DNA from: an uncultured bacterium
GTDB lineage: Bacteria; Poribacteria; WGA-4E; PCPOR2b
DNA length: 64,000 nt
Reading direction: 5' to 3'
NCBI GenBank assembly: GCA_964577695.1
Contig: CAZOAL010000006.1
Location: 177,511-241,510 of the forward strand
Both the position numbers and the translations under genes were made by a program. Within the stretch, counting starts at the first letter, position 1, and each line of letters starts with the position of its first letter. Below are positions 13,999-56,125 of this stretch, piece by piece. The notes beneath the pieces are model-generated. The model was not told the origin of the DNA. It saw only the letters and a list, made by a program, of their open reading frames with translations, and did not search any database.

Positions 13999-14157
13999 CA
14001 TGTTTCAGAAACCTCTTTACACGCTTTGCCGTTGGAAGAAAGGAAGGAGGGGAAGGAAGGGAAGGAAATGCGCGCTCCCTTCCTTTTCTTCCATTCTTCC
14101 ATCCTTCCATCCTTCCATGCAAAGTATCAACTCATTTTTTCAGGAATTTGAAACATG
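13999..14157. mobile_element. MITE-like repeat family A, copy 3 (internal hairpin made of GGAAGG-type units)
   Basis: catgtttcagaaacctctttacac ... caggaatttgaaacatg ends. Confidence 0.7.
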
Positions 14158-19216: not shown

Positions 19217-19325
19217 AAAACGTGAAACGTGAAACGTGAAACGTGATGAAGAGACCGTTCTTTTTCACGCATCACGCATCATTCTTCTCACGCATCACGC
19301 AGCACGCATCATTCCTTTCACGTTT
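19213..19325. repeat. hairpin-type repeat with tandem heptamer arms (GTGAAAC x3 / CACGCAT units) after the WD40 gene
   Basis: Seen in sequence. Confidence 0.6.
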
Positions 19326-19418
19326 CTGGTCTACATCGGTGACCTTTTAATCGGGCTTCCACTTAATAACGGTCGGTTACGCCCGCGCTTGACAACATAA
19401 AAATACGCCTCACAAATC

Positions 19419-19844
19419 ATGCCACACGAATATCGCACCAAACGAAAAATCGAATTTTCTGACACCGACATGGCGGGAATCGTCCATTTTTCCCAGTTTT
19501 TTATCTTCATGGAAACCGCCGAACACGAATTTATGCGCTCGCTAGGGACAAGCGTCGTCACGGAATGGGACGGAAACGCTATCGGCTGGCCACGGCTGAC
19601 GGCGTCGTGCGAGTACCGTCAGCCCGCGAAATTTGAAGAGGAACTGGACATCCACTTGACAGTTGCCAGAAAAGGCACCAAATCCATCACCTATCAATTC
19701 GTTTTTACAAAAGGGGATGTAGAGGTCGCTCGCGGTCAAATGGCGACTGCGTGCTGCATCTGCAATCCCGGTGAAAAGTTAAGAGCCATTCCGATACCGG
19801 ATTTTATCGCCGAACAAATTGAAGAAACTCCAAATGCAGAATAA
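19419..19844 (+). CDS. acyl-CoA thioesterase (4HBT / YbgC-like hotdog fold)
   Basis: EFSDTDMAGIVHFSQFFIFME motif. Confidence 0.7.
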   Translation: MPHEYRTKRKIEFSDTDMAGIVHFSQFFIFMETAEHEFMRSLGTSVVTEWDGNAIGWPRLTASCEYRQPAKFEEELDIHLTVARKGTKSITYQFVFTKGDVEVARGQMATACCICNPGEKLRAIPIPDFIAEQIEETPNAE

Positions 19845-20583
19845 AATAGAAAATTCACCCTCACCCGATTCAGCAGGGGCACAGCAGACTGCGGCCCTAC
19901 GAGTCACCGATGTCTATAAAAACTTCGGGAGTCCGGCGCATCCCGTGGAAGTGCTGCGCGGCATTTCGTTTGAAATTGCCACAGGCCAAGCCCTTGCCAT
20001 CACCGGCCCCTCCGGGTCTGGGAAAAGTACGATTTTGCACCTGATTGGAACTTTGGACAGACCTTCATCGGGACAGATCGGGATAAACGGCAGCGATCCA
20101 TTTTCCCTCCCCGAACCTGAATTGGCAAGATTTCGGAATCAGGTGATTGGCTTCGTCTTCCAGGAACATCATCTTCTGCCGCAATACTCTGTCCTGGAAA
20201 ATGTCCTCATCCCCACAATGGCTTTTAAAAACAGAAGCAGAGATACGACAGGTCATATCTCTGCTGAAAAACGCGCCCGCGAATTGCTGGAAAAAGTGGG
20301 GCTTACCGATCGGCTTGACCATCGCCCGGCGGAACTTTCCGGCGGTGAACGTCAACGAGTCGCTGTCGCTCGGGCGCTGATCAATCGACCAAGCCTTCTG
20401 CTCTGCGATGAGCCGACAGGGAGTCTTGATCGTTCCACGGCAAATACGGTAGCCTCTCTCTTATTTGAGCTCCACGAAACTGAACAAAACATCCTGATTG
20501 TGGTCACTCACAGCCTGGAACTCGCAGCACACTTTGAACGGCGTTTTGAACTTGTCAATGGGGCCATAGGAGGCTGGCACTGA
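19819..20583 (+). CDS. ABC transporter ATP-binding protein (LolD/MacB-like)
   Basis: GPSGSGKST Walker A; LSGGERQRVAVARAL signature; LLLCDEPTGSLD Walker B. Start may be at 19834. Confidence 0.8.
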   Translation: MKKLQMQNKIENSPSPDSAGAQQTAALRVTDVYKNFGSPAHPVEVLRGISFEIATGQALAITGPSGSGKSTILHLIGTLDRPSSGQIGINGSDPFSLPEPELARFRNQVIGFVFQEHHLLPQYSVLENVLIPTMAFKNRSRDTTGHISAEKRARELLEKVGLTDRLDHRPAELSGGERQRVAVARALINRPSLLLCDEPTGSLDRSTANTVASLLFELHETEQNILIVVTHSLELAAHFERRFELVNGAIGGWH

Positions 20584-20710
20584 CTTGAACAAAACAAGAT
20601 AGGTCATAAACTGCGATTTAATGTGCTGCATCTTGCATCTTGAATCCTGCATTCATCACAGATTCAAGATTCAGGATTCAGGATGCAAGAGTGTCATTTT
20701 GCAGTAGAGG

Positions 20711-21007
20711 TTACTCCTTCTGGTGCCGCTCAAGAAATTCTCTGAGTTTAACAAAACTTTTGATGTTCTTCATAATCCGCCCGCTCTCCCGCTCTTCGAG
20801 ATACAGAAAAAAACCCATCAGATACAAACTAATCAAGAACAGTAGAAAGCCGATGAAACATTGAACGATAGCGGGATAGTTTGCGTGGAAATCCAGTTTC
20901 GGGATACCTCCCTCCCCCGTTAGGGAAACGAAGCCGCGCCACCCCGTTACACCTATCGATAAGAAGGCGATTGAAAGTGCGAAGACGATGAAAAAGGGTA
21001 TACCCAT
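20711..21007 (-). CDS. small membrane protein, hypothetical
   Basis: Two or three hydrophobic helices; no family recognised. Confidence 0.35.
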   Translation of the reverse strand: MGIPFFIVFALSIAFLSIGVTGWRGFVSLTGEGGIPKLDFHANYPAIVQCFIGFLLFLISLYLMGFFLYLEERESGRIMKNIKSFVKLREFLERHQKE

Positions 21008-21100
21008 GACTGACCTCGTGCGTAATTCGTAAGACGTAATGCGTAAAAAGACACTTGCTCTTGTTACGCATTACGCATTACGCATTACGTCTCACGTTTT
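21005..21100. repeat. hairpin repeat with CGTAATG/CGCATTA heptamer arms
   Basis: cgtaagacgtaatgcgtaa ... ttacgcattacgcattacgcattacg. Confidence 0.6.
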
Positions 21101-22181
21101 ATTCCGAGACTTTCACCAACCCCTTGGTGCACTCGTCTTCGCGATTCCGCACCTGAGTGATTCCCTCGACCAGCTCATCCAACGGGAACCGATGACTGAT
21201 AATCTTATCCATGTCGACGGCTCCTGTGGAGATCAACTGAACGGCTTCCTCCCAGGTATTCGGCGCAAGCCAGGAGAAGCGGATGGTTTTGTCCATCAGG
21301 ATGGTGTTGAGAATCGGGACTTGCATCACGTCTTTGTCGCCGGGCAAGCCAAAGAGCACAACCGTCGCGTGACGCCCCGTGACTGCAAGCGCCGTATGAA
21401 TCGCGTCGAGCGAGCTCGTTGCGGTGATCGCCCGATCTGCGAGTTCACCGTTGTTGAGTGACTTAATCTTTTCAGAAAGGTCTTTGACATAGTAAGGCGA
21501 ATGGGGGTCCTTTGTATTGACAACCACATCCGCCCCCAACTCCGCACCGCGTTTGAGGCGGTAGTCGCGCGTGCCAACAAGGATGACGTTGCCTAACCCT
21601 CGGCTTTTGAGGACCTGTACCATCATCAAACCGATTGGGCCAGGTCCGAACACGACGGCTGTCTGTCCCGGCTCGGCATTCAGGTTATTGACTGCGTACA
21701 AGCCGCACGCCAACGGTTCCGTCAGGGCACCTTGATCATAAGTGACGTGGTCTGGAAGTTTTAATGTCCAGTGGTAATCAGAGAGCGTATATTCTGCAAA
21801 GCCCCCATTGACACTCACGCCAAGCACACGTTTTTCAGTACAGAGGTTGGAAAGCCCCTTTTTGCTCCAGTAGGAATTGGGGTTTGACTGCACCGGGTTC
21901 GCAACGACGCGGTCGCCAATCTTAAAGCCCCCTACCCTCGCCGCCTCACTTCCAACCGCGACAACGTCACCGGTAAACTCATGCCCAAGAACGAGCGGAC
22001 CTTTACCGTTAGGTGTCTCAAGAGAACTTTTACCGAAATAGTAAGCGACATCGGAACCGCAAATCCCAACCGAGTGAACTTTAATGAGCACGTCACTAGG
22101 TTTGGGTTCGGGAATATGCTTCTCCTCAATCGCCATCTTTTCGGGTTCATAGAAGATTTGCGCCTTCATGGATTCCGCCAT
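21099..22181 (-). CDS. zinc-dependent alcohol dehydrogenase (MDR family; sorbitol/threonine dehydrogenase-like)
   Basis: GICGSDVAYY zinc motif; GxGxxG; RBS AGGAGG before MAESMKAQ. Confidence 0.8.
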   Translation of the reverse strand: MAESMKAQIFYEPEKMAIEEKHIPEPKPSDVLIKVHSVGICGSDVAYYFGKSSLETPNGKGPLVLGHEFTGDVVAVGSEAARVGGFKIGDRVVANPVQSNPNSYWSKKGLSNLCTEKRVLGVSVNGGFAEYTLSDYHWTLKLPDHVTYDQGALTEPLACGLYAVNNLNAEPGQTAVVFGPGPIGLMMVQVLKSRGLGNVILVGTRDYRLKRGAELGADVVVNTKDPHSPYYVKDLSEKIKSLNNGELADRAITATSSLDAIHTALAVTGRHATVVLFGLPGDKDVMQVPILNTILMDKTIRFSWLAPNTWEEAVQLISTGAVDMDKIISHRFPLDELVEGITQVRNREDECTKGLVKVSE

Positions 22182-22231
22182 GATTTTATCCTCCTTTAGA
22201 TAGAGAGATGTCAAAACTGCTAATTAATGAG

Positions 22232-22360
22232 GCTTGGTCATAATGACTTGGAGATGCAGTTGTAGCCTAAGATTCTATCTTGGCTGCTGGCATGAGAACC
22301 AAGTTAGAAACTTGGGCTACGTAAAGATTTCATCCGAATTATGACCACTCCTCAACTCAT
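22232..22360. mobile_element. MITE-like repeat family B, copy 1 (ends ggcttggtcataat / gaattatgacc; palindromic core gtagcc.aagattctatcttgg)
   Basis: Seen in sequence; shared with copies at 22555 and 40652. Confidence 0.6.
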
Positions 22361-22554
22361 TTTGCATTCTGAATTTGCTGAAGGTCATCAGGGCGTTATG
22401 CGAGTCTCGGATGCCCGAGTCTCGATCTATCGGCGTTCGGGCATCTCGGATCAGCGGTGATAGGGTTTTAGAGAAACTCGCATGAGCCCCTTTAAGATTG
22501 TATTATAGCATATTGAGCCAGTGTTGGTAAACCCTATATTCCCTTAATTAGAAG

Positions 22555-22695
22555 AGGGTTGGTCATTATTCTCAGGGGAGGCAATCGTAGCCCAAGATTT
22601 CGACAAGCTCAACCCGGCGGATTCTATCTTGGCCCCTGGCGCATGGGCCAAGATAGAATCTTGGGCTACAACTCAACCGCCGGCGAATTATGACC
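22555..22695. mobile_element. MITE-like repeat family B, copy 2 (composite). Its terminal ATGACCAAGCC supplies the first ATG of the downstream giant ORF
   Basis: cgtagcccaagatt...ggccaagatagaatcttgggctac core; gaattatgaccaagcc end. Confidence 0.6.
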
Positions 22696-22719
22696 AAGCC
22701 TTACTTACCTAAATTTACA

Positions 22720-25700
22720 ATGGTAAACCGAAAGAAAGCAGCAAAGATGAGAGATTGGAAAAAGAAAAGTTATATCATCTTATCCATCATCGTTGGTAGC
22801 CTGTACATCTTCGCAACGTCTACTGTTGCCCAAGAGATTAAACGTCAGTCTATCCCTGTTGGAATGTTCAATGTGTATGCCACCATTGACAACAACAATA
22901 CCGGTCTGCCAACGCCCGACCTCCGCGATGTCTGGCAGGGCGTGCCGACAAACTGGGAGGGGGGCTACTACCCTTACGAAGCGTGTAACCTTGTGCAGCA
23001 CTACTGGCCGAAGGAACTTCCGACGGATGTGCCACCGGGACAGGATGCGTATGTCGTTTGGTGGACACGGTTTCTCCGGGAGGTTTACGAGCAAGGCAAC
23101 GAGAAGGGCGAGGTTCGATTGCGTGCGATTGTCGGTCCACTTTTCAGCCATTACGAAGCGTTCGGCGAGCAGTGGCTCATCAATTTTATCCAACGGCTCT
23201 GTGAGTGGGAGCGGAGCGGCCCACACGATGGCGTAATTGCCGGATGGTATCTCATCGAAGAGCCAATGGGGTCGGGCTCGCACAACTTCAACGTTGACAC
23301 CTTTGAGGAGATGGCGAAGGTCGTCGATAAAGCGGAAACGGCCGGTGGCTTTCGACACCATGACCGCTATGTTGATGTTTCCCTTGATGGGGCATTTTTC
23401 ACTCCACAGGGGCTGGCGCGTTTCTGCCGCCCAGCCGATGTCGTGATGGTCAGCTCCAGCAGCTATCTCTGGCTGACGAGTGGGACGCAGCCTGTATTTA
23501 ATACGCGTTATCGGGATTTAGCGTTCTCAATGAACCAGGTTCGCCGCACCGTTTTTCCAGACCATGACCAACACGGGCTGCCGCGTCCTAAGATTCATCT
23601 CGTCCTGCAAGCCTACGATCCGATGGGGTTTGGACAACCGACGCATTGGGAGATGCGCCAGCAAATTCGAGAGGCGTTGACCCTTGATTTTGAATTGCTC
23701 GGCAACCAACCGGTTGCACCAGCGGATGGAATCTGGTTTTTCTGGTGGCCGGGGCTGACCTTTGAGAACAAAAACCGTGTGGACGACTGGCTCTACGGAC
23801 GACAGATTGCGGAAGCGATCGAGCTTGAAGTGGCAGAGGTGACGGGTAACGGAGGTGAAACCCGGTCTGTGAATGTGCCGACAGCATCCCGCTTTGCCTT
23901 CCCACCGCTGGTTCCCTTCAACCCGGACGATGGCATCATCCCCTACGAGTTGGCAAAGTCAGGGCTTGTCACAATCGAAATCCTCGACATGAATGGCTCT
24001 AAGGTTCAGGCGTTTGACATGGGGATTCAGAGCGCGGGGCGGCTGCACCGGTTCGGAGGCCCCCGCTGGTTGCCACTCTCAACCCAGCCTGACGGGCGAT
24101 ATATCTTCCGGCAGTTTCTCAACTCCGTCCCCGTTGACAGCGTTGAGGTGGAAGTGCAACGGCAACCACGCCTCTTTAGCCCTTCCCATGTGCCCAACAT
24201 TTGGTCAAACGACAACACCATTGAGGTGACATGGCGTCCACCCGCTCTGGGCGCGGGGTTGGGGGGATTTTCATTTCTGTGGAGCAATTCTCCTTTCAGC
24301 ATTCCGCCTCGCACCGTTGCACTGACGCCATCGGATGTCACGTATACAAGTCCACCGTTGCCGGATGGGAAATCGCACTATTTTCATCTCCTAAGCGTCG
24401 ATGCAAACGGCGAATGGGGGGAGACATCGCATTTAGGCCCATTCTGGATTGATACGATACCCCCAGCTTTACCTACCGATGTTGTCAGCTCCAGTCATAA
24501 GACCGGAATTTGGTCATCGGCAAACGTGATTGATATCAAATGGTCTGCTGCGCCCCCCCCTCAATCCCCCCCGCGGGCAGGGGGTGAAGAGGGGCCTCCC
24601 CCCCTGCCCGCGGGGGGGACAGGGGGGGGGGCGTCTTTGCGCGGCTATTCAATCGTCTGGGACCGTCAGCCGTTCACGCTCCCGCCAGCGGAGATTAACG
24701 TTGGGCCCGCTGTCACTGCACTCTCGACGCCTCCACTTGTGGACGGCATCTGGTATCTGCACTTGCGCCCTGCGGATGTCGCTGGCAACTGGACAAGCGA
24801 TGCTGTGCACCTTGGCCCCTTCCAGATTGACACCCACTCGCCCAATCCACCGTCCGACTTGAGGGGCGTCTCTCATCAGGTCGGCGTCTGGTCAAACCGT
24901 GCCGAGATTGAGTTGGAATGGACAGCCGCTTCGGATGAAACCAGCGGCATCAAAAATTATCTCATCGTTTGGGATACCTCCCCGGACACACATCCAACGC
25001 CTGATGCCAATCCGTCCATCTTCCTTCCGCCCCTACTTGCAGGGGGGGGGGCTGGCAATTCGCCTAAGGTCAGCTACCGTGGCCCTGCCCTCGTTGATGG
25101 CGATACCCATTACGTCCATCTTCGCGCTGTGGATGGTGCCGGGCTGACGACAGATGAAACGCTCCATCTCGGTCCCTTCCGAATCGACGCAACCCCGCCG
25201 GGCGATATTCGTGGCTTTGCCGCGTATGGCGTAGAGCCCCCGCCAACCCCTCCCCTCTCGCCTCTCCCCGCTAGCGGAGAGGTTCCGCTTGACCTCAACA
25301 AGTGGCTGATCTCCCCTCAAATGATCCTTGCGTGGCAGGTAAGCACAGATTCCGGTAGCAGCGTTGCGGTCTACGAAATTACGCGAGTGCGCCCGGAAAC
25401 GGGAGAACAGCAGACCTTCCAAATCAACGCGGATGCGCCATCTCAATGGACCCCGGCAGGTCTGAGCGATGGTGCTTGGGTATTTCGCCTCCGGGCCGGC
25501 GATAACGCTGGTAACTGGAGCGCTTATTCCGACCTGACGCTCAAGATTGATACCACCGTGCCAACGCCTATCCTCAACAGTCCCTCCCACCCGAATAGCG
25601 AACGCTGGTACGCGGATGCGAATCCAATCGTCGAATGGATGATTGAGCGCGATCTATCCGGCATCGCGGGGTATCTTGGAGAATGGAGCGATCAACCGGA

Positions 25701-28700
25701 CACCATTCCTCAAACGCCAATCAATGAATCGACAATCGACAATCGAGGTTCGGTGAATGGAGGAACGGAGGAAGTAGAGCGGGCGGCTCGCCCGTTTGGA
25801 AAGATACGCAATACGCAATACGCAATACGCAATACGAACGACTCACCACTCACCATTCACCCATCACTCCCTGACGGCATCTGGTATTTCCACCTGCGTG
25901 CGATCGACAACGCGGGCAACCGGAGCGAAGTCGCTCACTATAAGGTGCAGATTGAGCACCAAGTCCCTGAAACACCAATCATCCGCTCACAGACCCACCC
26001 CCCGGAGCGTTGGTCAAAGAGCCATATTGTCGATCTGCGTTGGGACGAAGCCCCCACATTGAGCGGCCCCCCCCGCTACAGTTTTGCGCTCGACCACGCC
26101 CCCGACACCCTCCCTGACGATACGCCCGAACCAATTAGGGAGGGTGAAGCTCCCGCTGAACCCCACATTGAGCAAACGCTGGACGATGGGATTTGGTACT
26201 TTCATCTCAAGGCAATTAGCAGAACCGGAATTAGGAGCGAGACCGCCCATTATCGTATACAGATTGATAGCCAGATTGCGACGCCGGTCATCCGCAGCCC
26301 CTCGCACGCGGATAGCACGAGCTGGTATGCGAACCCATCGCCGGTGATCGAATGGACGATTGCGGACGACCTCTCTGGAATTGCCGGCTATTTCGGCGAA
26401 TGGGATTCCCAACCGAACACGATTCCGCAAACGCCTATTTCTCCCTCACCCCCCCTCACCCCCGGCCCCTCTCCCACAGGGGGGAGAGGGGAGCCACTTG
26501 ATAACGAAAACAGGGTGTTCGCACTCCAAAGCGGGGTCTGGTACTTCCACCTGCGCGCGATCGATAACGCCGGCAATCTCAGCGAAACGGCGCACTACCA
26601 GGTTCGCATCGATGCGTCCGCGCCGGCTGTGCCTGTCATCCAGTCCAGCTCCCATCCGGCGGGCGTTTGGCGGTCTCAGTCGGCTGTGGATATCCGCTGG
26701 AACGTTGGCACCCCCACCCCAACCCTTCCCCGCGGACAGGGAGGGGGCTTGAGTGGGATGGCTGGCTATAGCTTCGTGCTAGACCAGAAACCCACCACGT
26801 TGCCTGATGAGCGGATTGACGGCCTTCAGCCTCAAGTGACAACCACGCTTGCGGATGGCATCTGGTACTTCCACCTGCGAGCGCAGAGCAATACGGGACT
26901 GTGGAGCGAAACTGCCCATTACGAGATACGAATTGACACCCACCCTCCCGAAATCACGATTACGCTGCCGCCTAGTGGGGAGCGGGAGCGCGAGGCTCCT
27001 GCCGAGTGGTTCAGGCAAGCCATCAATGAATACGCTGGGGAGATGCGCGATGAGCTATCCGGCATTGACGAGACAACGCTCGAATATCGGTACGCGGGGC
27101 TGGATTGGAAGCCCTTCGTCAACGAGGCGTCAAGCGGTTGGCTTGACACAAACGAATTGCCCCATGTCACCCAGGCAAGCGGCGTGTCGTTGCAAGTGCG
27201 CGTTCGCGATCGCGCGGAGAACGTTGGGCTGTCTGAGGAGCGGCTGATTCGCGTGGATGTCGAACCTCCATCACTGACAGTGACAAGTCCCACGCATCCC
27301 CAGCAGGGAAGATGGTACGCCGATCCGAACCCGGTGGTTGAATGGACGGTTAGTAGCGACCTCTCCGGGATTGCAGATTACTTTTGGGTGTGGGACAACC
27401 AATCGGACACGATTCCCCGGCAGGGCCAGAAAACCGGAGACCCAGAAAGCCAGACAGCCAACGAGAGCAAGTCACAGGTTCGGCGGGAGCCTCACCCTCC
27501 CACCAGTCACAGGTTCGGCGGGAGCCTCACCCTCCCACTCACGGATGGCATCTGGTATTTCCACTTAATCGCCTTTGATAACGCCGGCAACCCAAGCGAG
27601 CCAGTCCACTACCGTTTTCAAATTGACACGCAACCGCCGAAGGGGACGATTCACATTCTCAGACCGGAGGTCATCAAGGGTCGTCCAAAATCTGTTCGCT
27701 ATCTTGAATCAAAGGAGGTTCCGCCGCGCGTCAGCTCAGGAGAAATTCGGATTGTTCTCACGCTATCGGAAGAGATGATTGAGCCCCCGAAACTCTTTTT
27801 CCAGCCGAATAGTCGGCAGGAGATAGCCCTTGCACTCGGCCGGAGCCTCGTGCTCCCACTGGATGGGGCCGAGGGGGCACAAAATCGCTCGCCGCTTCAA
27901 TGGCACGCCACATTACAGGTTTCGCCTCACACAGGCGATGGTGTGGGCAAGTTTCGATTTGTCGGCACTGATGGAGCTGGCAACCTTGGGGGTGAAATTA
28001 CGATGGGCATGGAACTCGTCATCGATACGCTCATCCATGCGGATGAAACGGAAGTCCAGCATCGAATCGGCGATAACGGCGCGATTGCGACAATCCCTCC
28101 CCGAGCGCTCCGCTCCGATGTACGCTTGCACCTTGAGGCGTCCCCCCATACCCCCCCCTCCAGGGGGGGGACGCAAGGTTCTGACCCTGGCTTCCCCCCC
28201 GTGGACGGGGGGGGTACGGGGGGGACCACAGGGGGGGGGACATCCAACCGCTACCGCCTCATCGCCTGGGATGGAACTGGACGTCCCCTTCCGAATCTGA
28301 CGTTTGTCGCGCCGATTGAGTTACAACTGCCAATCGATGCAACGCAGCCGATTGGGGCGGGAGATGCCGCGTATACAGTGCTTTACAACGATGGTGTCAG
28401 GACCCATCGGATCGGCACCGTCGTCGCAGGTGGCCAGGCGATCGCGTCCGTCAGTCAGATCGGCGAATTTCTGATTGCCCCCGCGCCCACGCCCAAGCGG
28501 AAGATTACCGGCGGGTGGGCGGCCCCGAATCCTTTCACGCCCAACCACAGCGGCGATGCCAGCGATCGAACAATCTTCCACGTTCAAACGCGGGGGGACG
28601 ATGTGACCTTCACCATCGAAATCTATGGCCTGACGGGACGACGCATTCGCACGTTGCGCAACGGATTGAATGTGTGGGATGGGTCAGATGAAAGCGGCAG

Positions 28701-28782
28701 GGTTGTCGAAAATGGTGTGTACATCTACCAGATTCATGCGGGGGATGAGGTGATTAGCGGGACCGTTGTCGTGGTGAGGTGA
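22720..28782 (+). CDS. giant secreted modular surface protein (about 2020 aa): N-terminal TIM-barrel-like putative glycosyl-hydrolase-like domain, about 10 tandem ~100-aa beta-sandwich modules (PSHP..RWYA..DLSGIAGY..WD.QPDTIP...DGIWYFHLRA.DNAGN) and a T9SS-type C-terminal sorting domain
   Basis: Repeated modules visible in the translation; C-terminal PNPFTPN...FTIEIYGLTGRRIRTL tail; signal-peptide-like N-terminus after M at 22720 or 22747. Confidence 0.65.
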   Translation: MVNRKKAAKMRDWKKKSYIILSIIVGSLYIFATSTVAQEIKRQSIPVGMFNVYATIDNNNTGLPTPDLRDVWQGVPTNWEGGYYPYEACNLVQHYWPKELPTDVPPGQDAYVVWWTRFLREVYEQGNEKGEVRLRAIVGPLFSHYEAFGEQWLINFIQRLCEWERSGPHDGVIAGWYLIEEPMGSGSHNFNVDTFEEMAKVVDKAETAGGFRHHDRYVDVSLDGAFFTPQGLARFCRPADVVMVSSSSYLWLTSGTQPVFNTRYRDLAFSMNQVRRTVFPDHDQHGLPRPKIHLVLQAYDPMGFGQPTHWEMRQQIREALTLDFELLGNQPVAPADGIWFFWWPGLTFENKNRVDDWLYGRQIAEAIELEVAEVTGNGGETRSVNVPTASRFAFPPLVPFNPDDGIIPYELAKSGLVTIEILDMNGSKVQAFDMGIQSAGRLHRFGGPRWLPLSTQPDGRYIFRQFLNSVPVDSVEVEVQRQPRLFSPSHVPNIWSNDNTIEVTWRPPALGAGLGGFSFLWSNSPFSIPPRTVALTPSDVTYTSPPLPDGKSHYFHLLSVDANGEWGETSHLGPFWIDTIPPALPTDVVSSSHKTGIWSSANVIDIKWSAAPPPQSPPRAGGEEGPPPLPAGGTGGGASLRGYSIVWDRQPFTLPPAEINVGPAVTALSTPPLVDGIWYLHLRPADVAGNWTSDAVHLGPFQIDTHSPNPPSDLRGVSHQVGVWSNRAEIELEWTAASDETSGIKNYLIVWDTSPDTHPTPDANPSIFLPPLLAGGGAGNSPKVSYRGPALVDGDTHYVHLRAVDGAGLTTDETLHLGPFRIDATPPGDIRGFAAYGVEPPPTPPLSPLPASGEVPLDLNKWLISPQMILAWQVSTDSGSSVAVYEITRVRPETGEQQTFQINADAPSQWTPAGLSDGAWVFRLRAGDNAGNWSAYSDLTLKIDTTVPTPILNSPSHPNSERWYADANPIVEWMIERDLSGIAGYLGEWSDQPDTIPQTPINESTIDNRGSVNGGTEEVERAARPFGKIRNTQYAIRNTNDSPLTIHPSLPDGIWYFHLRAIDNAGNRSEVAHYKVQIEHQVPETPIIRSQTHPPERWSKSHIVDLRWDEAPTLSGPPRYSFALDHAPDTLPDDTPEPIREGEAPAEPHIEQTLDDGIWYFHLKAISRTGIRSETAHYRIQIDSQIATPVIRSPSHADSTSWYANPSPVIEWTIADDLSGIAGYFGEWDSQPNTIPQTPISPSPPLTPGPSPTGGRGEPLDNENRVFALQSGVWYFHLRAIDNAGNLSETAHYQVRIDASAPAVPVIQSSSHPAGVWRSQSAVDIRWNVGTPTPTLPRGQGGGLSGMAGYSFVLDQKPTTLPDERIDGLQPQVTTTLADGIWYFHLRAQSNTGLWSETAHYEIRIDTHPPEITITLPPSGEREREAPAEWFRQAINEYAGEMRDELSGIDETTLEYRYAGLDWKPFVNEASSGWLDTNELPHVTQASGVSLQVRVRDRAENVGLSEERLIRVDVEPPSLTVTSPTHPQQGRWYADPNPVVEWTVSSDLSGIADYFWVWDNQSDTIPRQGQKTGDPESQTANESKSQVRREPHPPTSHRFGGSLTLPLTDGIWYFHLIAFDNAGNPSEPVHYRFQIDTQPPKGTIHILRPEVIKGRPKSVRYLESKEVPPRVSSGEIRIVLTLSEEMIEPPKLFFQPNSRQEIALALGRSLVLPLDGAEGAQNRSPLQWHATLQVSPHTGDGVGKFRFVGTDGAGNLGGEITMGMELVIDTLIHADETEVQHRIGDNGAIATIPPRALRSDVRLHLEASPHTPPSRGGTQGSDPGFPPVDGGGTGGTTGGGTSNRYRLIAWDGTGRPLPNLTFVAPIELQLPIDATQPIGAGDAAYTVLYNDGVRTHRIGTVVAGGQAIASVSQIGEFLIAPAPTPKRKITGGWAAPNPFTPNHSGDASDRTIFHVQTRGDDVTFTIEIYGLTGRRIRTLRNGLNVWDGSDESGRVVENGVYIYQIHAGDEVISGTVVVVR
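24553..24633. repeat. G/C mini-palindrome (poly-C-CCGCGGGCAGGGGG ... CCCCCTGCCCGCGGGGGGG) lying in frame inside the giant CDS
   Basis: Encodes PPPQSPPRAGGEEGPPPLPAGGTGGGA; shares the CCGCGG core with similar elements at 26710-26748 and 59992-60060. Confidence 0.6.
25775..25862. repeat. heptamer-arm repeat element ((ACGCAAT)x4 ... (ACTCACC)x3, preceded by palindrome cgggcggctcgcccg) lying in frame in a loop of one module of the giant CDS
   Basis: Translated as ERAARPFGKIRNTQYAIRNTNDSPLTIHPS; same unit type as intergenic hairpin repeats. Confidence 0.6.
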
Positions 28783-29385: not shown

Positions 29386-32298
29386 ATGTCAAATAAACAA
29401 GCACTCCAAGAATTTGTTGATTACGTCAGACGATTAAAAGGCGATGAGAAAGGAGAGGCACAGTTGTTTTGTGACCGTTTCTTCCGTGCCTTTGGTTATG
29501 GCGGCATATTAGAGGCTCATGGCTCACTTGAGGCACGTATCAAGTTTAGCGACTCGGGTCGCACTAAATTTGCGGATTGCCTTTGGTCGCCGCATGGCAA
29601 AGATGGAGTGTTGATTGAGATGAAAAAGAAGGCGGAAAAGAATCTTGAAACTCATTTTCCGCAAGCCCGCGACTATTGGATTGAAATGAATCCGGAAAAG
29701 GTCATCGGGCCGGGGGCTCAAAAGCCAAAATATATCATTCTTTGCAACTTTGAGCGTTTTTTGCTCTACAGACAATTATCATTCGTTGACGAGATTACAA
29801 TTGACGAGTTTGTGGAGCGAGCCAGCGCCTTTAACTTTATGCTCCCGGAAGATAAAGAACCGATCTTCCACAACAATATTGAAGCTATTTCACAAGACGC
29901 GGCACGAACAATCGGTGAAATATTCAAACACTTAATTTTTGAAAAAGGGGAAGAACGGGAAGTCGCTCAACGTTTTCTTTTACAGTGTGTACTTGCCCTA
30001 TTTTCAGAGGATTTCGGTCTTTTGCCGCCGTTCATTTTTTCTGAGCTCATTCGTGACTGCCAAAGAGGGCAAAGCGCATACGATCTCTTAGGCGGCCTTT
30101 TTAGACAAATGGCGAGCGAGAAACCTGCGAAGGGTGGACGGTTCAAAGATGTCAAATATTTCAACGGCGGCCTTTTTGACGAAGTTGAGCCGCTGGAGCT
30201 CGATTCAACAAGTCTTAACCTTCTCGCTAACGCTGCCGATTTCAACTGGAAAAGTGTTAACCCTTCTATTTTTGGCGCTCTTTTTGAAAGCACGATGAAC
30301 GAAAAGGAGCGTCACCAATTTGGGGCGCATTACACAAGCGAAGCGGATATTTTGAAAATTGTTAATCCAACCATCGTGCGTCCGTGGAAGGAACGCTTAA
30401 ATAAGGCGAAAACACTCCAAGAGTTATCGAATTTACTGGACGAACTTGAAAATTTCAAAGTGCTAGACCCAGCCTGCGGGTGTGGTAATTTTCTTTATGT
30501 TGCCTACCGTGCTTTGAAAGACATTGAGATGCAGATTATTGAGAAAATCGCTGCTAACTTTTCTTCACGTTCGGTCAAACCTTTGAAATTCGGTATCTCC
30601 CGCGTATCTACTAAGCAATTCTACGGGATTGACCTTCTGCCCGTTGCCGTAGAGGTCGCGAAAGTGACCCTAATGCTTGGCAAGGAGTTGGCGGCAGATG
30701 AATGGAACAAACGTATCCGTTTGCTCATGTCAATCCTTGATCTCAATTTTGATGAGGGGTTGCCGTTGGAACGTCTGGACGATTTTATCATCTGTGATGA
30801 CGCCCTTTTCTGTGATTGGCCGGAATTCGATGTGGTTATCGGTAATCCGCCGTATCAATCGAAAAATAAAATGCAGATGGAAATGGACAGGGAATATATT
30901 GACCGGGTGAGAGCCCATTACCCCGATGTTCCAGGTCGAGCCGACTATTGCGTCTATTGGTTCCGACGAGGACACAAAGAGATGAAAGAAGGTCAACGTG
31001 CAGGTTTTGTCGGTACAAACACGATACGTCAAAACTATTCCCGCGAAGGTGGGCTCGACTATATTGTAAATAATGGTGGCACGATTACCGAAGCCGTTTC
31101 TACACAGGTGTGGTCAGGTGACGCTGTCGTTCACGTTTCGATTGTCAACTGGATAAAAGGAGCGGAAAAAGGGGGAAAGTCACTTGTATTACAACGTGGC
31201 GACTCGGTTGACTCGCCTTTTGATTATTATGATTTAGAATACATAAACTCCGCGTTGAGCCTTGCTGTCGATTTGACCTCAGCCAGATCCCTCAAGGTGA
31301 ATGAGAATTCCAATGCGTGTTTTCAAGGCCAAACACATGGGCACGAGAGTTTTTTGCTGGTGAGAGAGGAAGCGGAAAGTTTGCTGAAATCCGATGCAAA
31401 ATGTGGGGAGGTCTTGTTCCCATTTCTTACAGCCAATGAAATGATCGGGGGTGAAAATTCGCTTCCAAGACGATATGTGATTGACTTCCGCAAACACGAC
31501 ATATTTTCAGCCAAGAAATATTCAGAGCTTTTCAATAGAGTCCAGAGTTCCGTTTTGCCAGATCGGAAGGCAAAGGCGAAAGAAGAAGAACGACGAAACA
31601 ACGCTACGCTGGCAAAAAACCCGAATGCCCGTGTCAACCATCACCACGCCAATTTCCTTAAGCAATGGTGGAAGCTATCTTATCCACGAGACGAACTTAT
31701 GGAAATTATTGAGTCTATCCCCCGTTATTGCGTTTGTGGACAGGTTACTAAGCGCCCGATTTTTGAATTCATCTCTTCCGAGATTCATCCGAATGCAGCA
31801 TTGGTAGTTTTCCCCCTTGCTGATGACTACTCCTTTGGTATTTTGCAATCAATAGTACACTGGGAATGGTTCACCGCGCGCTGTTCAACATTGAAAGGTG
31901 ATTTCAGGTATACTTCAAATACTGTTTTTGACTCTTTTCCGTGGACTCAGAAACCAGCAAAGGCACAGGTAAAAGAAATCGCCAAGCGTGCTGTGGAATT
32001 GCGCTCCGTGCGGCGCAGGATAATGGCGGAAAATAAAATGAGTTTGCGTGAACTTTACCGGGTAATGGAAGAAACCGCTGCTAACCCGGTCAGTGAGGTG
32101 CAAGACAAACTAGATGCGGCAGTATTTTCAGCCTATGGGATGAAAAAGAATGATGATATTCTCGCTTTTCTACTTGCGTTAAATCTCGATTTGGCTGCAC
32201 AAGAAGCGAATGCGGAAGAAATATTCGGCCCAGGTCTCCCGCCACATATTGAAAATCCCGCAGAGTTTATTACGGGCGATTGCATTCGTATGCCGTAA
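29386..32298 (+). CDS. MmeI-family Type IIL/IIG restriction-modification enzyme (single-chain nuclease + gamma-class N6A MTase + target-recognition domain)
   Basis: N-terminal AQLFCDRFFRAFGY ... D-x9-EMK nuclease motif; VIGNPPYQSK MTase motif IV; 970 aa; AT-rich. Confidence 0.7.
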   Translation: MSNKQALQEFVDYVRRLKGDEKGEAQLFCDRFFRAFGYGGILEAHGSLEARIKFSDSGRTKFADCLWSPHGKDGVLIEMKKKAEKNLETHFPQARDYWIEMNPEKVIGPGAQKPKYIILCNFERFLLYRQLSFVDEITIDEFVERASAFNFMLPEDKEPIFHNNIEAISQDAARTIGEIFKHLIFEKGEEREVAQRFLLQCVLALFSEDFGLLPPFIFSELIRDCQRGQSAYDLLGGLFRQMASEKPAKGGRFKDVKYFNGGLFDEVEPLELDSTSLNLLANAADFNWKSVNPSIFGALFESTMNEKERHQFGAHYTSEADILKIVNPTIVRPWKERLNKAKTLQELSNLLDELENFKVLDPACGCGNFLYVAYRALKDIEMQIIEKIAANFSSRSVKPLKFGISRVSTKQFYGIDLLPVAVEVAKVTLMLGKELAADEWNKRIRLLMSILDLNFDEGLPLERLDDFIICDDALFCDWPEFDVVIGNPPYQSKNKMQMEMDREYIDRVRAHYPDVPGRADYCVYWFRRGHKEMKEGQRAGFVGTNTIRQNYSREGGLDYIVNNGGTITEAVSTQVWSGDAVVHVSIVNWIKGAEKGGKSLVLQRGDSVDSPFDYYDLEYINSALSLAVDLTSARSLKVNENSNACFQGQTHGHESFLLVREEAESLLKSDAKCGEVLFPFLTANEMIGGENSLPRRYVIDFRKHDIFSAKKYSELFNRVQSSVLPDRKAKAKEEERRNNATLAKNPNARVNHHHANFLKQWWKLSYPRDELMEIIESIPRYCVCGQVTKRPIFEFISSEIHPNAALVVFPLADDYSFGILQSIVHWEWFTARCSTLKGDFRYTSNTVFDSFPWTQKPAKAQVKEIAKRAVELRSVRRRIMAENKMSLRELYRVMEETAANPVSEVQDKLDAAVFSAYGMKKNDDILAFLLALNLDLAAQEANAEEIFGPGLPPHIENPAEFITGDCIRMP

Positions 32299-32340: not shown

Positions 32341-32445
32341 CAAAGCAGGTAGGTCAGGCTGCGCCTGACACCATATAGTCAGGCACAGCCTGACCTACTT
32401 ACTGACACCATATAGTCAGGCACAGCCTGACCTACTTACTCTGAC
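32341..32445. repeat. complex imperfect hairpin (aggtaggtcaggctgcgcctgac...cagcctgacctactt) followed by a 37-bp tandem direct repeat (gacaccatatagtcaggcacagcctgacctacttact x2)
   Basis: Seen in sequence. Confidence 0.6.
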
Positions 32446-36314: not shown

Positions 36315-36425
36315 TCCTACAAACCTCCGTTTTGAGACCAGGAAGGAAGGGAAGAAGGGAAGGATGGAAGGAGGCAATCTTCCATCCTTCCTTTCACGTT
36401 TCACGCATCACGCATCACGTTTCTA
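36315..36425. repeat. hairpin repeat with GGAAGG-unit arms plus CACGTTT/CACGCAT heptamers
   Basis: Seen in sequence. Confidence 0.55.
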
Positions 36426-39539: not shown

Positions 39540-39655
39540 CATGAAACGTAAAACGTAAAACGTGATGGAGGACTGGAAGATTGGAGGCTTGTCTTTACCC
39601 ATCCTTCCGTTCCTTCCATTCTTCCTTCTTTTACATTCTTCCATCTTTTACCCCG
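39540..39655. repeat. hairpin repeat: (ACGTAAA)x2 heptamers followed by GGAAGG-unit arms
   Basis: Seen in sequence. Confidence 0.55.
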
Positions 39656-40651: not shown

Positions 40652-40780
40652 GGATGGTCATCATTCGCCGACGGTTGAGTTGTAGCCCAAGATTCTATCT
40701 TGGCCCCTTACGCAAGGGCCAAGTTAGAAACTTGGGCTACGATTGCCTCCCCTGGGAATTATGACCAACCCTCAACTAAC
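40652..40780. mobile_element. MITE-like repeat family B, copy 3
   Basis: ggatggtcatcattcg...gttgtagcccaagattctatcttggcc...ggccaagttagaaacttgggctac...gaattatgaccaacc. Confidence 0.6.
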
Positions 40781-43705: not shown

Positions 43706-43775
43706 TGCGTTACCTCCTTCACCCTTGATTTCTAATACAGTTTCACTCCGATTGAATTTTGGAGTGGGAGCTCTT

Positions 43776-43808
43776 AGAAACCGAGTTTTTTAGAAAAACT
43801 CGGTTTCT
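43776..43808. terminator. perfect hairpin repeat family D copy 1 (agaaaccgagttttttagaaaaactcggtttct); bidirectional terminator-like
   Basis: 15-bp stem, T-runs on both strands. Confidence 0.5.
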
Positions 43809-43819
43809 GACCGTTTCTG

Positions 43820-45637: not shown

Positions 45638-45667
45638 TAAAAGAAACCGAGTTTTTTCAAAAAACTC
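45632..45667. terminator. hairpin repeat family D copy 2 (agaaaccgagttttttcaaaaaactcggtttct)
   Basis: Seen in sequence; flanks the phosphoesterase gene on the other side from copy 1. Confidence 0.5.
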
Positions 45668-45706
45668 GGTTTCTCGTTACTAAATTTTCAATCTCCATAA
45701 ATCTTT

Positions 45707-48850: not shown

Positions 48851-48985
48851 CATGTTTCAGAAAACGGTTGACACTTCGAGAGCATGATGCGTGAGGCGTA
48901 AAACGTGAAACGTAAGAAGAGCTCCCTTTACGTTTTACGTTTTACGAAAGCAGTTCAACACCTTTTTTCGGAAATTTGAAACATG
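48851..48985. mobile_element. MITE-like repeat family A, copy 4 (contains ttgacac; internal CGTGAAA/CGTAAAA heptamer hairpin)
   Basis: catgtttcagaaaacggttgacac ... cggaaatttgaaacatg. Confidence 0.7.
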
Positions 48986-56059: not shown

Positions 56060-56125
56060 TGTCCTCATTTCCTTTATCCTTACGTTTTACGCAATACGCA
56101 ATACGTTTCACGTTTCACGCTTTCC
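56060..56125. repeat. heptamer-unit repeat (ACGCAAT x2, CACGTTT x2) between the proB start and the TA module
   Basis: Seen in sequence. Confidence 0.5.

Follow-up and report, generated by a model that had tools for sequence, protein, structure and literature searches.

A heptanucleotide-repeat insert, probably generated by slippage, in a loop of a T9SS-sorted giant surface protein of Poribacteria

We analyzed a 64-kb stretch of DNA (the window) from an uncultured bacterium of the Poribacteria, in which the gene of a giant surface protein carries a block of short heptanucleotide repeats. The block probably represents tolerated repeat DNA that was generated by slippage and is accommodated, in this lineage specifically, by a loop of a T9SS-sorted surface protein. 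Alignment with orthologues shows it to be a lineage-specific in-frame insertion, located directly ahead of the conserved 'L-x-DG-x-WYFH' strand in one of the Ig-like modules (module A). Its parts and the other features discussed below are listed in Table 1.

Table 1. Coordinates in the window of the host gene, the inserted block and related repeats
Feature	Position	Strand	Description and basis
Host gene, secreted surface protein	22690..28782	+	ORF and translation: intact, uninterrupted, 6093 nt, 2030 aa
First-module insert, C-run/G-run palindromic	24553..24631	+	PPPQSPPRAGGEEGPPPLPAGGTGGG; absent from the closest relative, L060
Module A, Ig-like, carries the insert	25552..25968	+	aa 955-1093; module alignment, AlphaFold, Foldseek
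Inserted block, 43-44 codons, ~130 nt	about 25729..25860	+	Translated STIDNRGSVNGGTEEVERAARPFGKIRNTQYAIRNTNDSPLTI(H); protein and DNA alignments to L001-L004, L006 and L007
Array 1, (AATCGAC)x2.9	25727..25746	+	TRF, 100%; exact run 20 nt
Purine-rich heptads GGTGAAT GGAGGAA CGGAGGA AGTAGAG	25752..25779	+	First 9 nt pair with 25853-25861
GC-rich palindrome CGGGCG-GCT-CGCCCG (cgggcggctcgcccg)	25780..25794	+	Sequence
Array 2, (ATACGCA)x4.7, no mismatches	25804..25836	+	TRF, 100%; exact run 33 nt; translated IRNTQYAIRNT
Array 3, (ACTCACC)x2 + ATTCACC	25841..25861	+	TRF: period 7, 3.0 copies, 92%
Module C insert, same loop as module A	26443..26491	+	CCCTCACCCC repeats and palindrome CCCCTCTCCC-ACA-GGGGGGAGAGGGG; translated SPSPPLTPGPSPTGGRGE
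Module E insert, same loop as module A	27425..27538	+	GCCAGAAA x4.5 array and 35-nt tandem duplication; TRF
Intergenic one-sided heptamer string	56082..56125	+	3' of proB-like gene (AA_kinase+PUA); contains TACGCAATACGCAATACG

Host protein and the inserted block

The predicted protein starts with an N-terminal hydrophobic leader and a family-specific N-terminal domain, continues with about eight Ig-like (Big_13 / OmpL47-type) modules, and ends in a C-terminal T9SS type A sorting domain. It matched Big_13 (2.8e-21) and CHU_C (26.2 bits) in Pfam, and an OmpL47-type domain (62.3 bits) and TIGR04183 (28.1 bits, cut-off 23) in NCBIfam. Because the sorting domain TIGR04183 scored above its cut-off, Ig-like modules are present, and the leader is visible in the translation, we class the product as a surface or secreted protein. 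Orthologues of the gene are present in Poribacteria MAGs, and module A weakly matched SiiE BIg, PKD, and FN3-like domains in Foldseek. An exact-protein look-up of the 2030-aa protein returned no record. Word-indexed protein searches returned only relatives at 39% identity or less for the module A-C region and two matches for the N-terminal domain, and neither kind of search found a strain more than 65% identical across module A.

An earlier sequence-only reading of this DNA had placed a repeat element in a variable loop of one module, and the ORF translation, the module alignment, and AlphaFold all agree with this placement. Comparison with orthologous modules, which that reading had suggested, revealed six from Poribacteria MAGs without the element. 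In these, the loop between TIPQTPI and L.DG.WYFH consists of 8-13 residues, compared with about 52 in module A. Thus, the block is a lineage-specific insertion, and the gain of new protein sequence from the repeat that had been proposed amounts to about 43 residues relative to the orthologous modules. DNA homology to the orthologues ends at ...CAATGAATCG and starts again at TCACTCCCTGACGGC, and neither a target-site duplication nor a direct duplication was seen at these alignment-defined junctions. The heptamer and palindrome sequence reported at 25775-25862 agrees with both the coordinates and TRF, and its translation ERAARPFGKIRNTQYAIRNTNDSPLTIHPS is correct and in frame inside the uninterrupted ORF. 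The repeats are thus real, but that span was too narrow for the block, which orthologue alignment delimits at about 25731-25860.

In the AlphaFold model of module A, pLDDT fell below 50 solely for residues 60-102 (25729-25857 in the window), and the remainder consisted of confident beta-sandwich strands on both sides (block-mean pLDDT 74-94). The insert is accordingly modeled as a predicted disordered loop that leaves the Ig-like beta-sandwich intact. The ORF, the module alignment, and AlphaFold concur in an in-frame, stop-free placement compatible with the host fold, and the integrity of the ORF suggests that the block is translated as part of it.

The block is composed of three short heptanucleotide arrays, purine-rich heptads, and a 15-nt GC palindrome. 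Array 1 begins right on the ancestral ...GAATCG (E-S) codons at the junction in the DNA alignment. Array 2 can also be read in another register as (ACGCAAT)x4 at 25806-25833, followed by ACGAACG at 25834-25840. With head-to-tail 7-nt units in at least about three copies, beyond chance, the in-gene arrays are heptanucleotide SSRs. Within the purine-rich heptads, TRF detected GAACGGAG x2.4 at 25755-25773. The likeness of these heptads to GGAAGGA-type intergenic arms is weak, the arm at 39606-39621 matching at 15/16 positions with one gap (E 8). The palindrome is the sole stable local stem of the block, being the only stem kept in centroid folds. Near the block ends lies a 9-bp perfect inverted repeat (25752-25760 and 25853-25861, 100% complementary), for which we estimated a chance probability of ~0.03 within the 136-nt block.

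Period-7 repeats in the window and in the gene family

This genome is specifically characterized by period-7 repeats, and heptamer periodicity marks its intergenic repeats. The window contains nine exact period-7 runs of at least 19 nt, compared with none or one for each of periods 5, 6, 8, 9, and 10, and ACGCAATACGCAAT with up to two mismatches gave seven matches where 0.52 were expected. The heptamer units differ from locus to locus, without one consensus. ATACGCA, the unit of array 2, is a single base away from the intergenic unit TTACGCA, and its sole other copy in the window is an identical 18-mer at 56088-56105 (E 1.9e-4), within the intergenic string of Table 1. This 18-mer was the only match when 25727-25862 was compared with the rest of the 64-kb window by blastn-short; AATCGAC, ACTCACC, and the palindrome had no counterpart elsewhere in it. 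Since a counterpart was found for the ATACGCA array alone, only this part of the block is shown to share its origin with the intergenic elements. On the same blastn-short result, we rejected within the 64 kb the idea that the block is a copy of a dispersed element.

Eight of the nine intergenic elements form strong hairpins from arrays that are complementary to each other (z -2.8 to -8.9; the ninth, -1.8). The corresponding z values of the in-gene block were -1.16 (25750-25865), -0.39 (25775-25862), and -0.13 (25720-25875), and the pairing left in it consists of the 9-bp outer repeat and the central 6-bp palindrome stem. We therefore rejected the block as one hairpin of the intergenic construction, its fold being not significant relative to shuffled sequence. 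A TIR-bounded shell, CATGTTTCAGAAAAC-GTTKACAC ... TATCAAC ... AATTTGAAACATG, surrounds the heptamer hairpins at four of about ten loci. Its motifs occur in the window only at 129, 486, 14001, and 48853 (with their 3' partners), and none was found near 25700-25900, where the block lacks the conserved shell of the four intergenic hairpins. The sequence-only reading had ascribed to the block the 'same construction' as the intergenic repeats. This holds for the heptamer periodicity and the ATACGCA unit, but not for the hairpin, the shell, or the remaining sequence. Its further proposal of a machinery that targets coding loops is not borne out, as no enzyme or target-site signature was found and the enrichment in the gene could reflect tolerance. 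An Rfam scan of the whole window at gathering thresholds matched no family; thus, the heptamer hairpins and the shell are not a described RNA family. The hairpins at 19218, 20627, and 21019 sit just 3' of stop codons. They have no T tail, and a consensus terminator scan of 19000-23000 did not flag them as intrinsic terminators.

Other repeats are present in the same gene. The paralogous modules C and E bear different repeat inserts at the loop used in module A, which supports a tolerant loop, and the closest relative, L060, lacks three further inserts. The 35-nt duplication in module E (2.0 copies, no mismatch) keeps the frame only when its unit is present exactly twice; in-silico alleles with one or three copies broke the frame, with stops at aa 1617 and 1637. 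The gene makes up 9.5% of the window and holds 14 of its 24 G/C homopolymers of at least 7 nt, and the ORF remains open across these runs and at least eight repeat inserts. Small C/G-run palindromes of shared sequence also occur in frame in two unrelated genes.

In-frame heptamer arrays were found in four other members of the family (L005, L057, L059, and P0028), where several of them immediately precede the DG.W.F strand. Across 307 kb of orthologous loci, six of six exact heptamer arrays fell inside the gene, which accounts for 31% of this sequence; they belong to three loci, with none in the flanks. That all exact arrays at these three loci are in the gene is not obviously predicted by mere tolerance. 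Heptapeptide repeats numbered 12 across the 19 family proteins, in which repeats of 4, 5, 6, 8, 9, or 10 aa were absent. At the equivalent loop, the peptide units are IPNSEFR in L005, IPHSAFR in L057, and LPPSAFR in P0028, with the DNA units AATTCCG, CATTCCG, and CTTCCGC (the last back-translated), respectively. The unit differs among the three relatives and is uniform inside each array, a pattern that, from the sequences, appears to be homogenised unit turnover. Many orthologues are without any arrays. The L005 contig terminates inside its own array.

Origin of the insert and its sensitivity to slippage

According to the explanation that we favor, the DNA of the block would be a product of the slipped-strand, hairpin-prone behavior of heptamers that also fills the intergenic regions, and it could have arisen either by local expansion from the ...GAATCG junction or by capture of repeat DNA. 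It would have survived in a loop that accepts nearly any stop-free insertion with a length that is a multiple of three, selection on the insert acting as a filter for frame and stop codons alone. As a repeat unit of 7 nt is not divisible by 3, the arrays expose the gene to frameshifts, a point that the sequence-only reading had missed. When 7 or 14 nt was added to or removed from any of the three arrays in silico, the protein became 1019-1128 aa long, with a stop within 7-90 codons of the gain or loss of one or two units; addition or removal of 21 nt kept the frame (2023 or 2037 aa). In the organism, a change of one or two units would be expected to truncate the protein at about half its length, and a change of three units to add or remove a heptapeptide. 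The insert would thus make the gene a slippage-sensitive, fast-evolving locus, whether or not this property is selected.

In silico, the gene has the hallmark of a contingency gene, namely a non-triplet tract in the ORF in which gain or loss of a single unit causes a frameshift and a truncated product. It is possible, if unlikely, that it is an adaptive contingency locus in which selection maintains the non-triplet loop repeats (7-nt and 8-nt arrays, the 35-nt duplication, and G/C runs). Slippage would then serve as reversible ON/OFF switching, the truncated protein losing its T9SS sorting domain; three-unit steps or compensating shifts between neighboring arrays would change the length and sequence of the loop, with escape from phage, predator, or host recognition as the benefit. 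Such a locus would fit the truncation at aa 1019-1128 caused by one or two units more or fewer, the mismatch-free 35-nt duplication that is in frame at two copies only, the share of the window's G/C homopolymers in this gene (14/24), the arrays with no or few mismatches in five family members, and the confinement of exact arrays to the gene at the orthologous loci (6/6). The homogenised unit turnover at the equivalent loop in L005, L057, and P0028 and the nature of the product as a secreted surface protein point in the same direction. However, every assembled orthologue is in frame, with no out-of-frame allele among the assemblies, copy numbers are low (3-8 units), and many orthologues are without arrays. 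Furthermore, the arrays lie mid-gene, whereas phase-variable tracts are usually enriched near the 5' end (PMC3315296), and several tracts per gene would make an OFF state hard to reverse. A broader version, which we consider rather doubtful, is that the Poribacteria-type T9SS giant-protein family forms a dedicated slippage-driven variation system, in which non-triplet repeats (7-, 8-, and 35-nt units and G/C runs) are kept specifically before the DG-x-WYFH strand of the Ig-like modules and undergo concerted turnover, giving both ON/OFF switching and frame-compensated recoding of exposed loops. If true, this would mean antigenic or phase variation in an uncultured, largely symbiotic phylum, with a possible tie to a heptamer-specific slippage property of the replication or repair machinery.

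The tolerated-repeat explanation also has to be weighed against the transposition of a discrete MITE/RPE-type mobile hairpin of the intergenic family into the gene, followed by erosion in which the arms lost complementarity and one array expanded. The inverted repeat GGTGAATGG/CCATTCACC near the block ends, and the central palindrome flanked by heptads as in the intergenic elements, are what such an origin would leave. The genome does have a conserved TIR-bounded shell around four heptamer hairpins, and shared-sequence C/G-run palindromes sit in the reading frames of two unrelated genes; Rickettsia RPEs are a documented example of palindromic elements that insert in frame (PMC10969869). Nevertheless, we consider this origin improbable: the 64-kb window contains no second copy of the block or its ends, the junctions show no target-site duplication, the block does not contain the shell sequences CATGTTTCA...TGAAACATG, the heptamer units vary by locus without a consensus, the fold is not significant, and no transposase was found. 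It is very improbable that the block results from a misjoin in the assembly or that the gene is a decaying pseudogene no longer under selection. Repeats do break assemblies, as at the contig end in L005, and the exact protein has no record elsewhere, but the two flanks together make up one module and fold into a single domain, and independent assemblies of relatives have similar in-frame arrays. A 6093-nt ORF open across at least eight repeat inserts and 14 G/C runs would also be very unlikely without selection. An origin of DGR type or of intron/intein type seems unlikely, since there are no stops or frame changes to bypass and the variation is in length and repeat content, not in point substitutions.

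Relation to known repeats and significance

In many bacteria, the most common class of long SSR is the heptanucleotide array, which has been explained by polymerase slippage (Mrazek et al. 2007, as summarised in PMC4679880). In the accounts of PMC4679880 and PMC4692102, bacterial LSSRs such as the cyanobacterial STRR/Calothrix heptanucleotides and the G-rich heptamers of Xanthomonas and Nostoc are, as here, genome-specific tandem 7-nt units; they are over-represented mostly in intergenic DNA near ORF ends and are likewise ascribed to slippage. In contrast to LSSRs, most arrays in this genome are paired as complementary arrays in long hairpins, some of them in a TIR-bounded shell, and their units are diverse, mostly CG-containing and otherwise A/T-rich, rather than one motif. 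Moreover, the arrays examined here are in frame within the interior of a coding region, a location in which repeats of this kind are reportedly under-represented (PMC4692102). The TAACTGA heptamers of Beggiatoaceae and cyanobacteria are similar in being mainly intergenic and occasionally translated, when in a stop-free orientation, as a heptapeptide repeat (LSVISYQ) (PMC4679880). The TAACTGA system consists of a single fixed motif, found for the most part immediately 5' of start codons, and the copies within ORFs are located at the ends of proteins or in hypothetical proteins (PMC4679880), whereas we found many motifs in internal loops of one conserved protein family, recurring across relatives.

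Rickettsia RPEs are another case of otherwise intergenic repeat DNA that lies in frame in ORFs, is translated within them, and can be accommodated by the host protein's fold (PMC10969869), much as the present insert sits in a loop and leaves its domain intact. They form conserved families of ~150 bp that encode a conserved peptide in many unrelated genes; the present block, in contrast, occurs once in the window and lacks both a consensus and recognisable ends, and it has the heptamer array alone in common with the intergenic repeats. Borg elements, as PMC9879509 portrays them, also carry mismatch-free tandem repeats both between and within ORFs; the repeats formed recently and, in ORFs, give disordered amino-acid repeats, often in extracellular or membrane proteins. 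Whereas those amino-acid repeats are perfect in that account, the 7-nt unit here cycles through three frames to give a heptapeptide, and a single-unit change shifts the frame. The arrays in our gene are also short and mixed with palindromes, unlike those of Borgs. Phase-variable surface genes of Haemophilus, Neisseria, Campylobacter, and Helicobacter resemble this gene in combining non-triplet repeats and G/C homopolymers in the ORF of a surface protein, and in the frameshift and truncation that follow a one-unit change, in our case in silico (for the background, see PMC3315296). However, many short tracts lie in the middle of this gene, in contrast to one long tract close to the 5' end, their copy-number variation is hypothetical, and the uncultured bacterium is environmental or symbiotic instead of being a host-adapted pathogen.

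Our literature search found no paper joining Poribacteria with heptamer repeats in the library covered, and a search on SSRs or phase variation in Poribacteria returned only papers on other organisms. What is new is the occurrence of in-frame heptamer arrays in four other family members, often at the loop of the module A insert. The wider pattern is of more interest than the single insert: it comprises this recurrence, the seven-residue period of all peptide repeats in the family, the change of unit between relatives at the equivalent loop, and a gene in the window that is open only at certain copy numbers of its many other non-triplet repeats. With its orthologue and structural support, the case shows intergenic-type simple-repeat DNA turning into new protein sequence by a route in which the permissive loop of a modular surface protein is entered and the repeat is read as a disordered extension. 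Should copy numbers prove variable in natural populations, Poribacteria would possess a surface-variation locus of the contingency type; if they are fixed, the gene is still a clear natural example of selection filtering frame and stop codons in hypermutable DNA.

The in-gene block and its host protein

The sequence at 25775-25862 is identical to that described in an earlier sequence-only reading, and the peptide quoted there is its translation in the frame of the 2030-aa open reading frame (ORF) that contains the block. The limits set in that reading are too narrow, because the repeats detected by Tandem Repeats Finder (TRF) and a 9-bp perfect inverted repeat, GGTGAATGG/CCATTCACC, lie partly outside them. 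The window contains nine exact runs with period 7 that are 19 nt or longer, and none or one for each of the periods 5, 6, 8, 9, and 10; a preference specifically for period 7 marks the window DNA, and the arrays of the block have this characteristic period of the genome.

The placement in a variable loop of one module proved correct by motif spacing, DNA junctions, and structure modeling. The distance from TIPQTPI to L-x-DG-x-WYFH is 8-13 residues in six orthologous modules (loci L001, L002, L003, L004, L006, and L007) and approximately 52 in module A (25552-25968), which carries the block. DNA homology to the orthologues extends to ...CCAATCAATGAATCG (P-I-N-E-S) and restarts at TCACTCCCTGACGGC (S-L-P-D-G), and the approximately 130 nt between these points have no counterpart in the DNA alignment. 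An AlphaFold model of module A, for which the alignment comprised the paralogous modules of the window and five database relatives, is a beta-sandwich with block-mean pLDDT values of 74-94 except at residues 60-102, which correspond to the insert (25729-25857) and are all below 50. The ordered part gave weak Foldseek matches to the BIg domains of the giant adhesin SiiE and to PKD and FN3-like domains (best E 4e-3). The block is an in-frame, stop-free insertion in a loop modeled as disordered.

The giant protein begins with a hydrophobic leader and a family-specific N-terminal domain of approximately 480 aa, continues with successive modules of approximately 100-130 aa, each closing with the motif DG-x-WYFH-x-RA-x-D-x-AGN, and ends in a C-terminal T9SS type A sorting domain (TIGR04183; 28.1 bits against a cut-off of 23, NCBIfam). 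It also matches Big_13 (2.8e-21, Pfam) and an OmpL47-type domain (62 bits, NCBIfam). Its best relatives in a collection of species-representative genomes are all Candidatus Poribacteria MAGs (43-55% identity), and the closest metagenome contig (L060; 65% identical) spans the N-terminal 870 aa only; the taxonomic placement is based on these matches. The family is small: nine 50%-identity representatives reached E < 1e-30 when the N-terminal domain was searched exhaustively with HMMER.

Features of the window and of orthologous loci (window coordinates unless a locus is named)
Feature	Position	Description
Giant gene	22690-28782 (+)	ORF containing the block
First array	25727-25746	(AATCGAC)x2.9 (TRF)
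Arms of inverted repeat	25752-25760, 25853-25861	9 bp
Purine-rich repeat	25755-25773	TRF
Palindrome	25780-25794	CGGGCGGCTCGCCCG; then (ACGCAAT)x4, ACGAACG, (ACTCACC)x2, ATTCACC
Second array	25804-25836	period 7, 4.7 copies, 100% matches (TRF)
Third array	25841-25861	period 7, 3.0 copies, 92% matches (TRF)
DNA without counterpart	25731-25860	absent from the six orthologous modules
8-nt array, module E	27425-27460	
35-nt duplication, module E	27470-27538	2.0 copies, 69 nt, no mismatch
C/G-run palindromes, giant gene	24598-24618, 28194-28214	
C/G-run palindromes, FG-GAP/ASPIC gene 59695-61191 (-)	59992-60056	in frame, read TPPVHGGGRGDALKSPPRAGGG
C/G-run palindrome, TPR gene 62925-63590 (-)	62961-63002	in frame, near C-terminus
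Intergenic heptamer elements (about ten)	161-209, 512-565, 14034-14118, 19218-19322, 20627-20690, 21019-21089, 36340-36423, 39544-39651, 48897-48946, 56082-56125	
Four-copy intergenic element (+)	129-254, 486-602, 14001-14157, 48853-48985	CATGTTTCAGAAAAC-GTTKACAC, heptamer hairpin, TATCAACWC-TTTTTT-CGGRAATTTGAAACATG
Related near-perfect hairpins	22620-22660, 40693-40729	(GA)TTCTATCTTGGCCCC...GGGCCAAGATAGAA(TC)
Another hairpin family	43774-43810, 45642-45674	AGAAACCGAGTTTTTT...AAAAAACTCGGTTTCT; between minus-strand genes
37-nt repeat	32365-32440	2.1 copies, no mismatch; includes hairpin with 20-bp stem (32349-32398)
WD40/cohesin gene	16253-19216	987 aa; 123-nt DNA repeats at 16437-17251
Purine repeat	L005 2502-2562	read EEWKERKEGGSGRMEGWKD
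Purine repeat	L057 10171-10188	read MEGWKD
21-nt array	L002 8833-8983	7.2 copies, no mismatch; upstream of orthologue
86-nt array	L002 14922-15265	4.0 copies (99%); from 3' end of orthologue downstream

The loop that takes the block in module A carries a CCCTCACCCC repeat and a C/G palindrome in paralogous module C, and an 8-nt array and the 35-nt tandem duplication in module E. By computation, the 35-nt unit is in frame at exactly two copies; one copy leads to a stop at aa 1617 and three to a stop at aa 1637. Thus, a one-copy ancestor was either out of frame there or compensated nearby, perhaps in the adjoining 8-nt array. The N-terminal modules contain three more C-run/G-run palindromic inserts, which L060 lacks. 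G/C homopolymer tracts are classic frameshift hotspots, and 14 of the 24 in the window that are 7 nt or longer (maximum 10 nt) fall in the giant gene, which makes up 9.5% of the window (5 more are in the FG-GAP gene); the giant ORF is open despite them. For a random 132-nt insert to be stop-free and also a multiple of three in length, we estimate a joint chance of approximately 0.04. With at least eight such inserts and 14 homopolymers, the single 6.1-kb ORF that nevertheless stays open points to purifying selection for an intact protein, and we regard an artefact or a pseudogene as very improbable.

C-run/G-run palindromes form a second class of small palindromes, found within the window in coding DNA only. 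Those of the FG-GAP/ASPIC and TPR genes are C10-GCCCGCG-G7, C8-GTGAAC-G8, and AATC6TAC6TTTCCAAAG6TAG6ATT; the same two types recur in the giant gene, with the peptide SPPRAGG in common.

Comparison with the intergenic elements

The sequence-only reading held that the block has the same construction as the intergenic hairpin repeats, a claim that stands for heptamer periodicity and one unit but not for the hairpin fold, the shell, or a copy of an element. In nearly all intergenic elements, an array (U)n is followed by a short loop and then by the complementary array, and most elements lie within approximately 100 nt 3' of a stop codon. Single-strand folds of eight of the nine tested gave z-scores of -2.8 to -8.9 against shuffled sequence, whereas the block gave -1.16 (25750-25865), -0.39 (the interval of the earlier reading), and -0.13 (25720-25875), with only the 6-bp palindrome stem and the 9-bp outer pairing persisting; we therefore rejected it as an intergenic-type hairpin of this genome. 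Four intergenic hairpins are enclosed by a conserved shell, bounded by terminal inverted repeats of 9 bp (CATGTTTCA...TGAAACATG), that is absent from the block. By sensitive blastn, the sole significant match of the block in the rest of the window is TACGCAATACGCAATACG (56088-56105, E 1.9e-4), in a one-sided string of heptamers downstream of a proB-like gene, and the block unit ATACGCA is one base off the intergenic unit TTACGCA. On these comparisons, the link appears real for heptamer periodicity and one unit.

Heptamer units, both intergenic and in-gene (window, L005, L057, and L059), mostly contain one CG dinucleotide and are otherwise A/T-rich (CGTAAAA, CGTGAAA, CGCATTA, CGCAATA, CGACAAT, CGAATTC, CGCATTC, CGAAATC, and CGAATTA); a second class is GGAAGGA-like. 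In each intergenic hairpin, one arm can be read in all three frames without a stop, unlike its complement. Every in-gene unit lacks stops on the sense strand, and 8 of 11 lack them on both strands.

Other repeats were observed in the window. The four-copy element (approximately 110-150 nt; no Rfam match) ends in 9-bp perfect inverted repeats, GTTGA/TCAAC can also pair, and its central hairpin is of the ACGTAAA type in three copies and of the GGAAGGA type in the fourth. The element has the look of a MITE, or of a structured RNA whose tip is hypervariable. The hairpin at 22620-22660 (18-bp stem), 30 nt 5' of the giant gene's start codon in a divergent intergenic region, may have a regulatory role in the 5' UTR or may represent a further small repeat family. 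The 37-nt repeat lies just 3' of an MmeI-family restriction-modification gene (29386-32298) that neighbors the giant gene. The composite heptamer hairpin at 19218-19322 begins two bases past the stop codon of the gene for a protein with a WD40 beta-propeller and cohesin domains.

Heptamer arrays in relatives

The 22 orthologous loci span 307 kb, 31% of which belongs to the gene, and contain six exact heptamer arrays of 19 nt or longer; each of the six is inside the gene, and there are essentially no arrays of other periods. In 19 family proteins, 12 repeats recur every 7 residues, and periods of 4, 5, 6, 8, 9, or 10 residues are not represented. Locus L005 has (AATTCCG)x5.1, read IPNSEFRIPNS, and its contig stops inside the array. 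The intact 1880-aa ORF of L057 has (CATTCCG)x6, read FQIPHSAFRIPHS, directly 5' of DGVWYFH, and two more arrays; that of L059 (2358 aa) has four, one of which, (AATCATC)x8.1 (57 nt), directly precedes L-S-DGEWLFQ. The intact 2098-aa family protein P0028 contains six heptapeptide repeats, with LPPSAFRLPPS at the same loop in three paralogous modules. L005 and L057 share 77% protein identity. At the equivalent loop, the units AATTCCG (L005), CATTCCG (L057), and CTTCCGC (P0028, back-translated) differ by one or two bases and are uniform inside each array, a pattern characteristic of concerted evolution through slippage. Arrays are missing from many of the other orthologues, so the trait is restricted to certain lineages.

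In L005 and L057, the loop of another module includes a translated GGAAGGA-type purine repeat, of the kind that forms intergenic hairpin arms in the window, and the P0028 counterpart reads VEWKERKERM. Repeat types around the orthologue differ among lineages of the phylum; on the complete Poribacteria chromosome OZ240244.1 (L002), the orthologue has no heptamer arrays and is accompanied by 21-nt and 86-nt arrays.

Probable origin and consequence of the block

We infer that slipped-strand or hairpin-mediated processes made the block, an origin accepted for heptanucleotide arrays in bacteria (Mrazek et al. 2007, summarized in PMC4679880). The first array starts directly on the ancestral ...GAATCG codons (GAATCGA CAATCGA CAATCGA), which fits local expansion, and the rest may be captured DNA or the product of stepwise growth. 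The insert would be tolerated because the loop projects from the sandwich. By computation, lengthening or shortening any one of the three arrays by one or two heptamers leads to a stop within 7-90 codons and a product of 1019-1128 aa without the sorting domain. A change of three units adds or removes one heptapeptide.

The in-gene element works like a heptanucleotide SSR. As protein evolution, it is similar to the in-frame Rickettsia palindromic elements (RPEs; PMC10969869) and to Borg-element tandem repeats, which give rise to disordered stretches of extracellular proteins (PMC9879509). An insertion of a discrete element of the RPE or MITE kind is improbable, because neither consensus copies nor a target-site duplication was found in the window and at the junctions. 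The block also resembles TAACTGA repeats, whose rare ORF copies read LSVISYQ (PMC4679880).

Selection for mutability itself, in the style of a contingency locus, is possible but rather unlikely. The many non-triplet tracts accumulated in the giant gene, the concentration of arrays in it, and the uniform units kept across related lineages would suit such selection, but the tracts lie mid-gene (compare PMC3315296), and arrays are missing from many orthologues. The giant gene has the sequence-level features of a contingency locus, a class defined by observed switching, and would be a candidate member.

Taking these results together, the observation in the sequence-only reading holds, and its interpretation does so in part. 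A literature search found no paper linking Poribacteria with heptamer repeats, and translated heptamer arrays recurring family-wide at one loop are a modestly novel comparative finding. We consider it probable that the block is a tolerated, slippage-generated insertion that incidentally renders the giant gene hypermutable.
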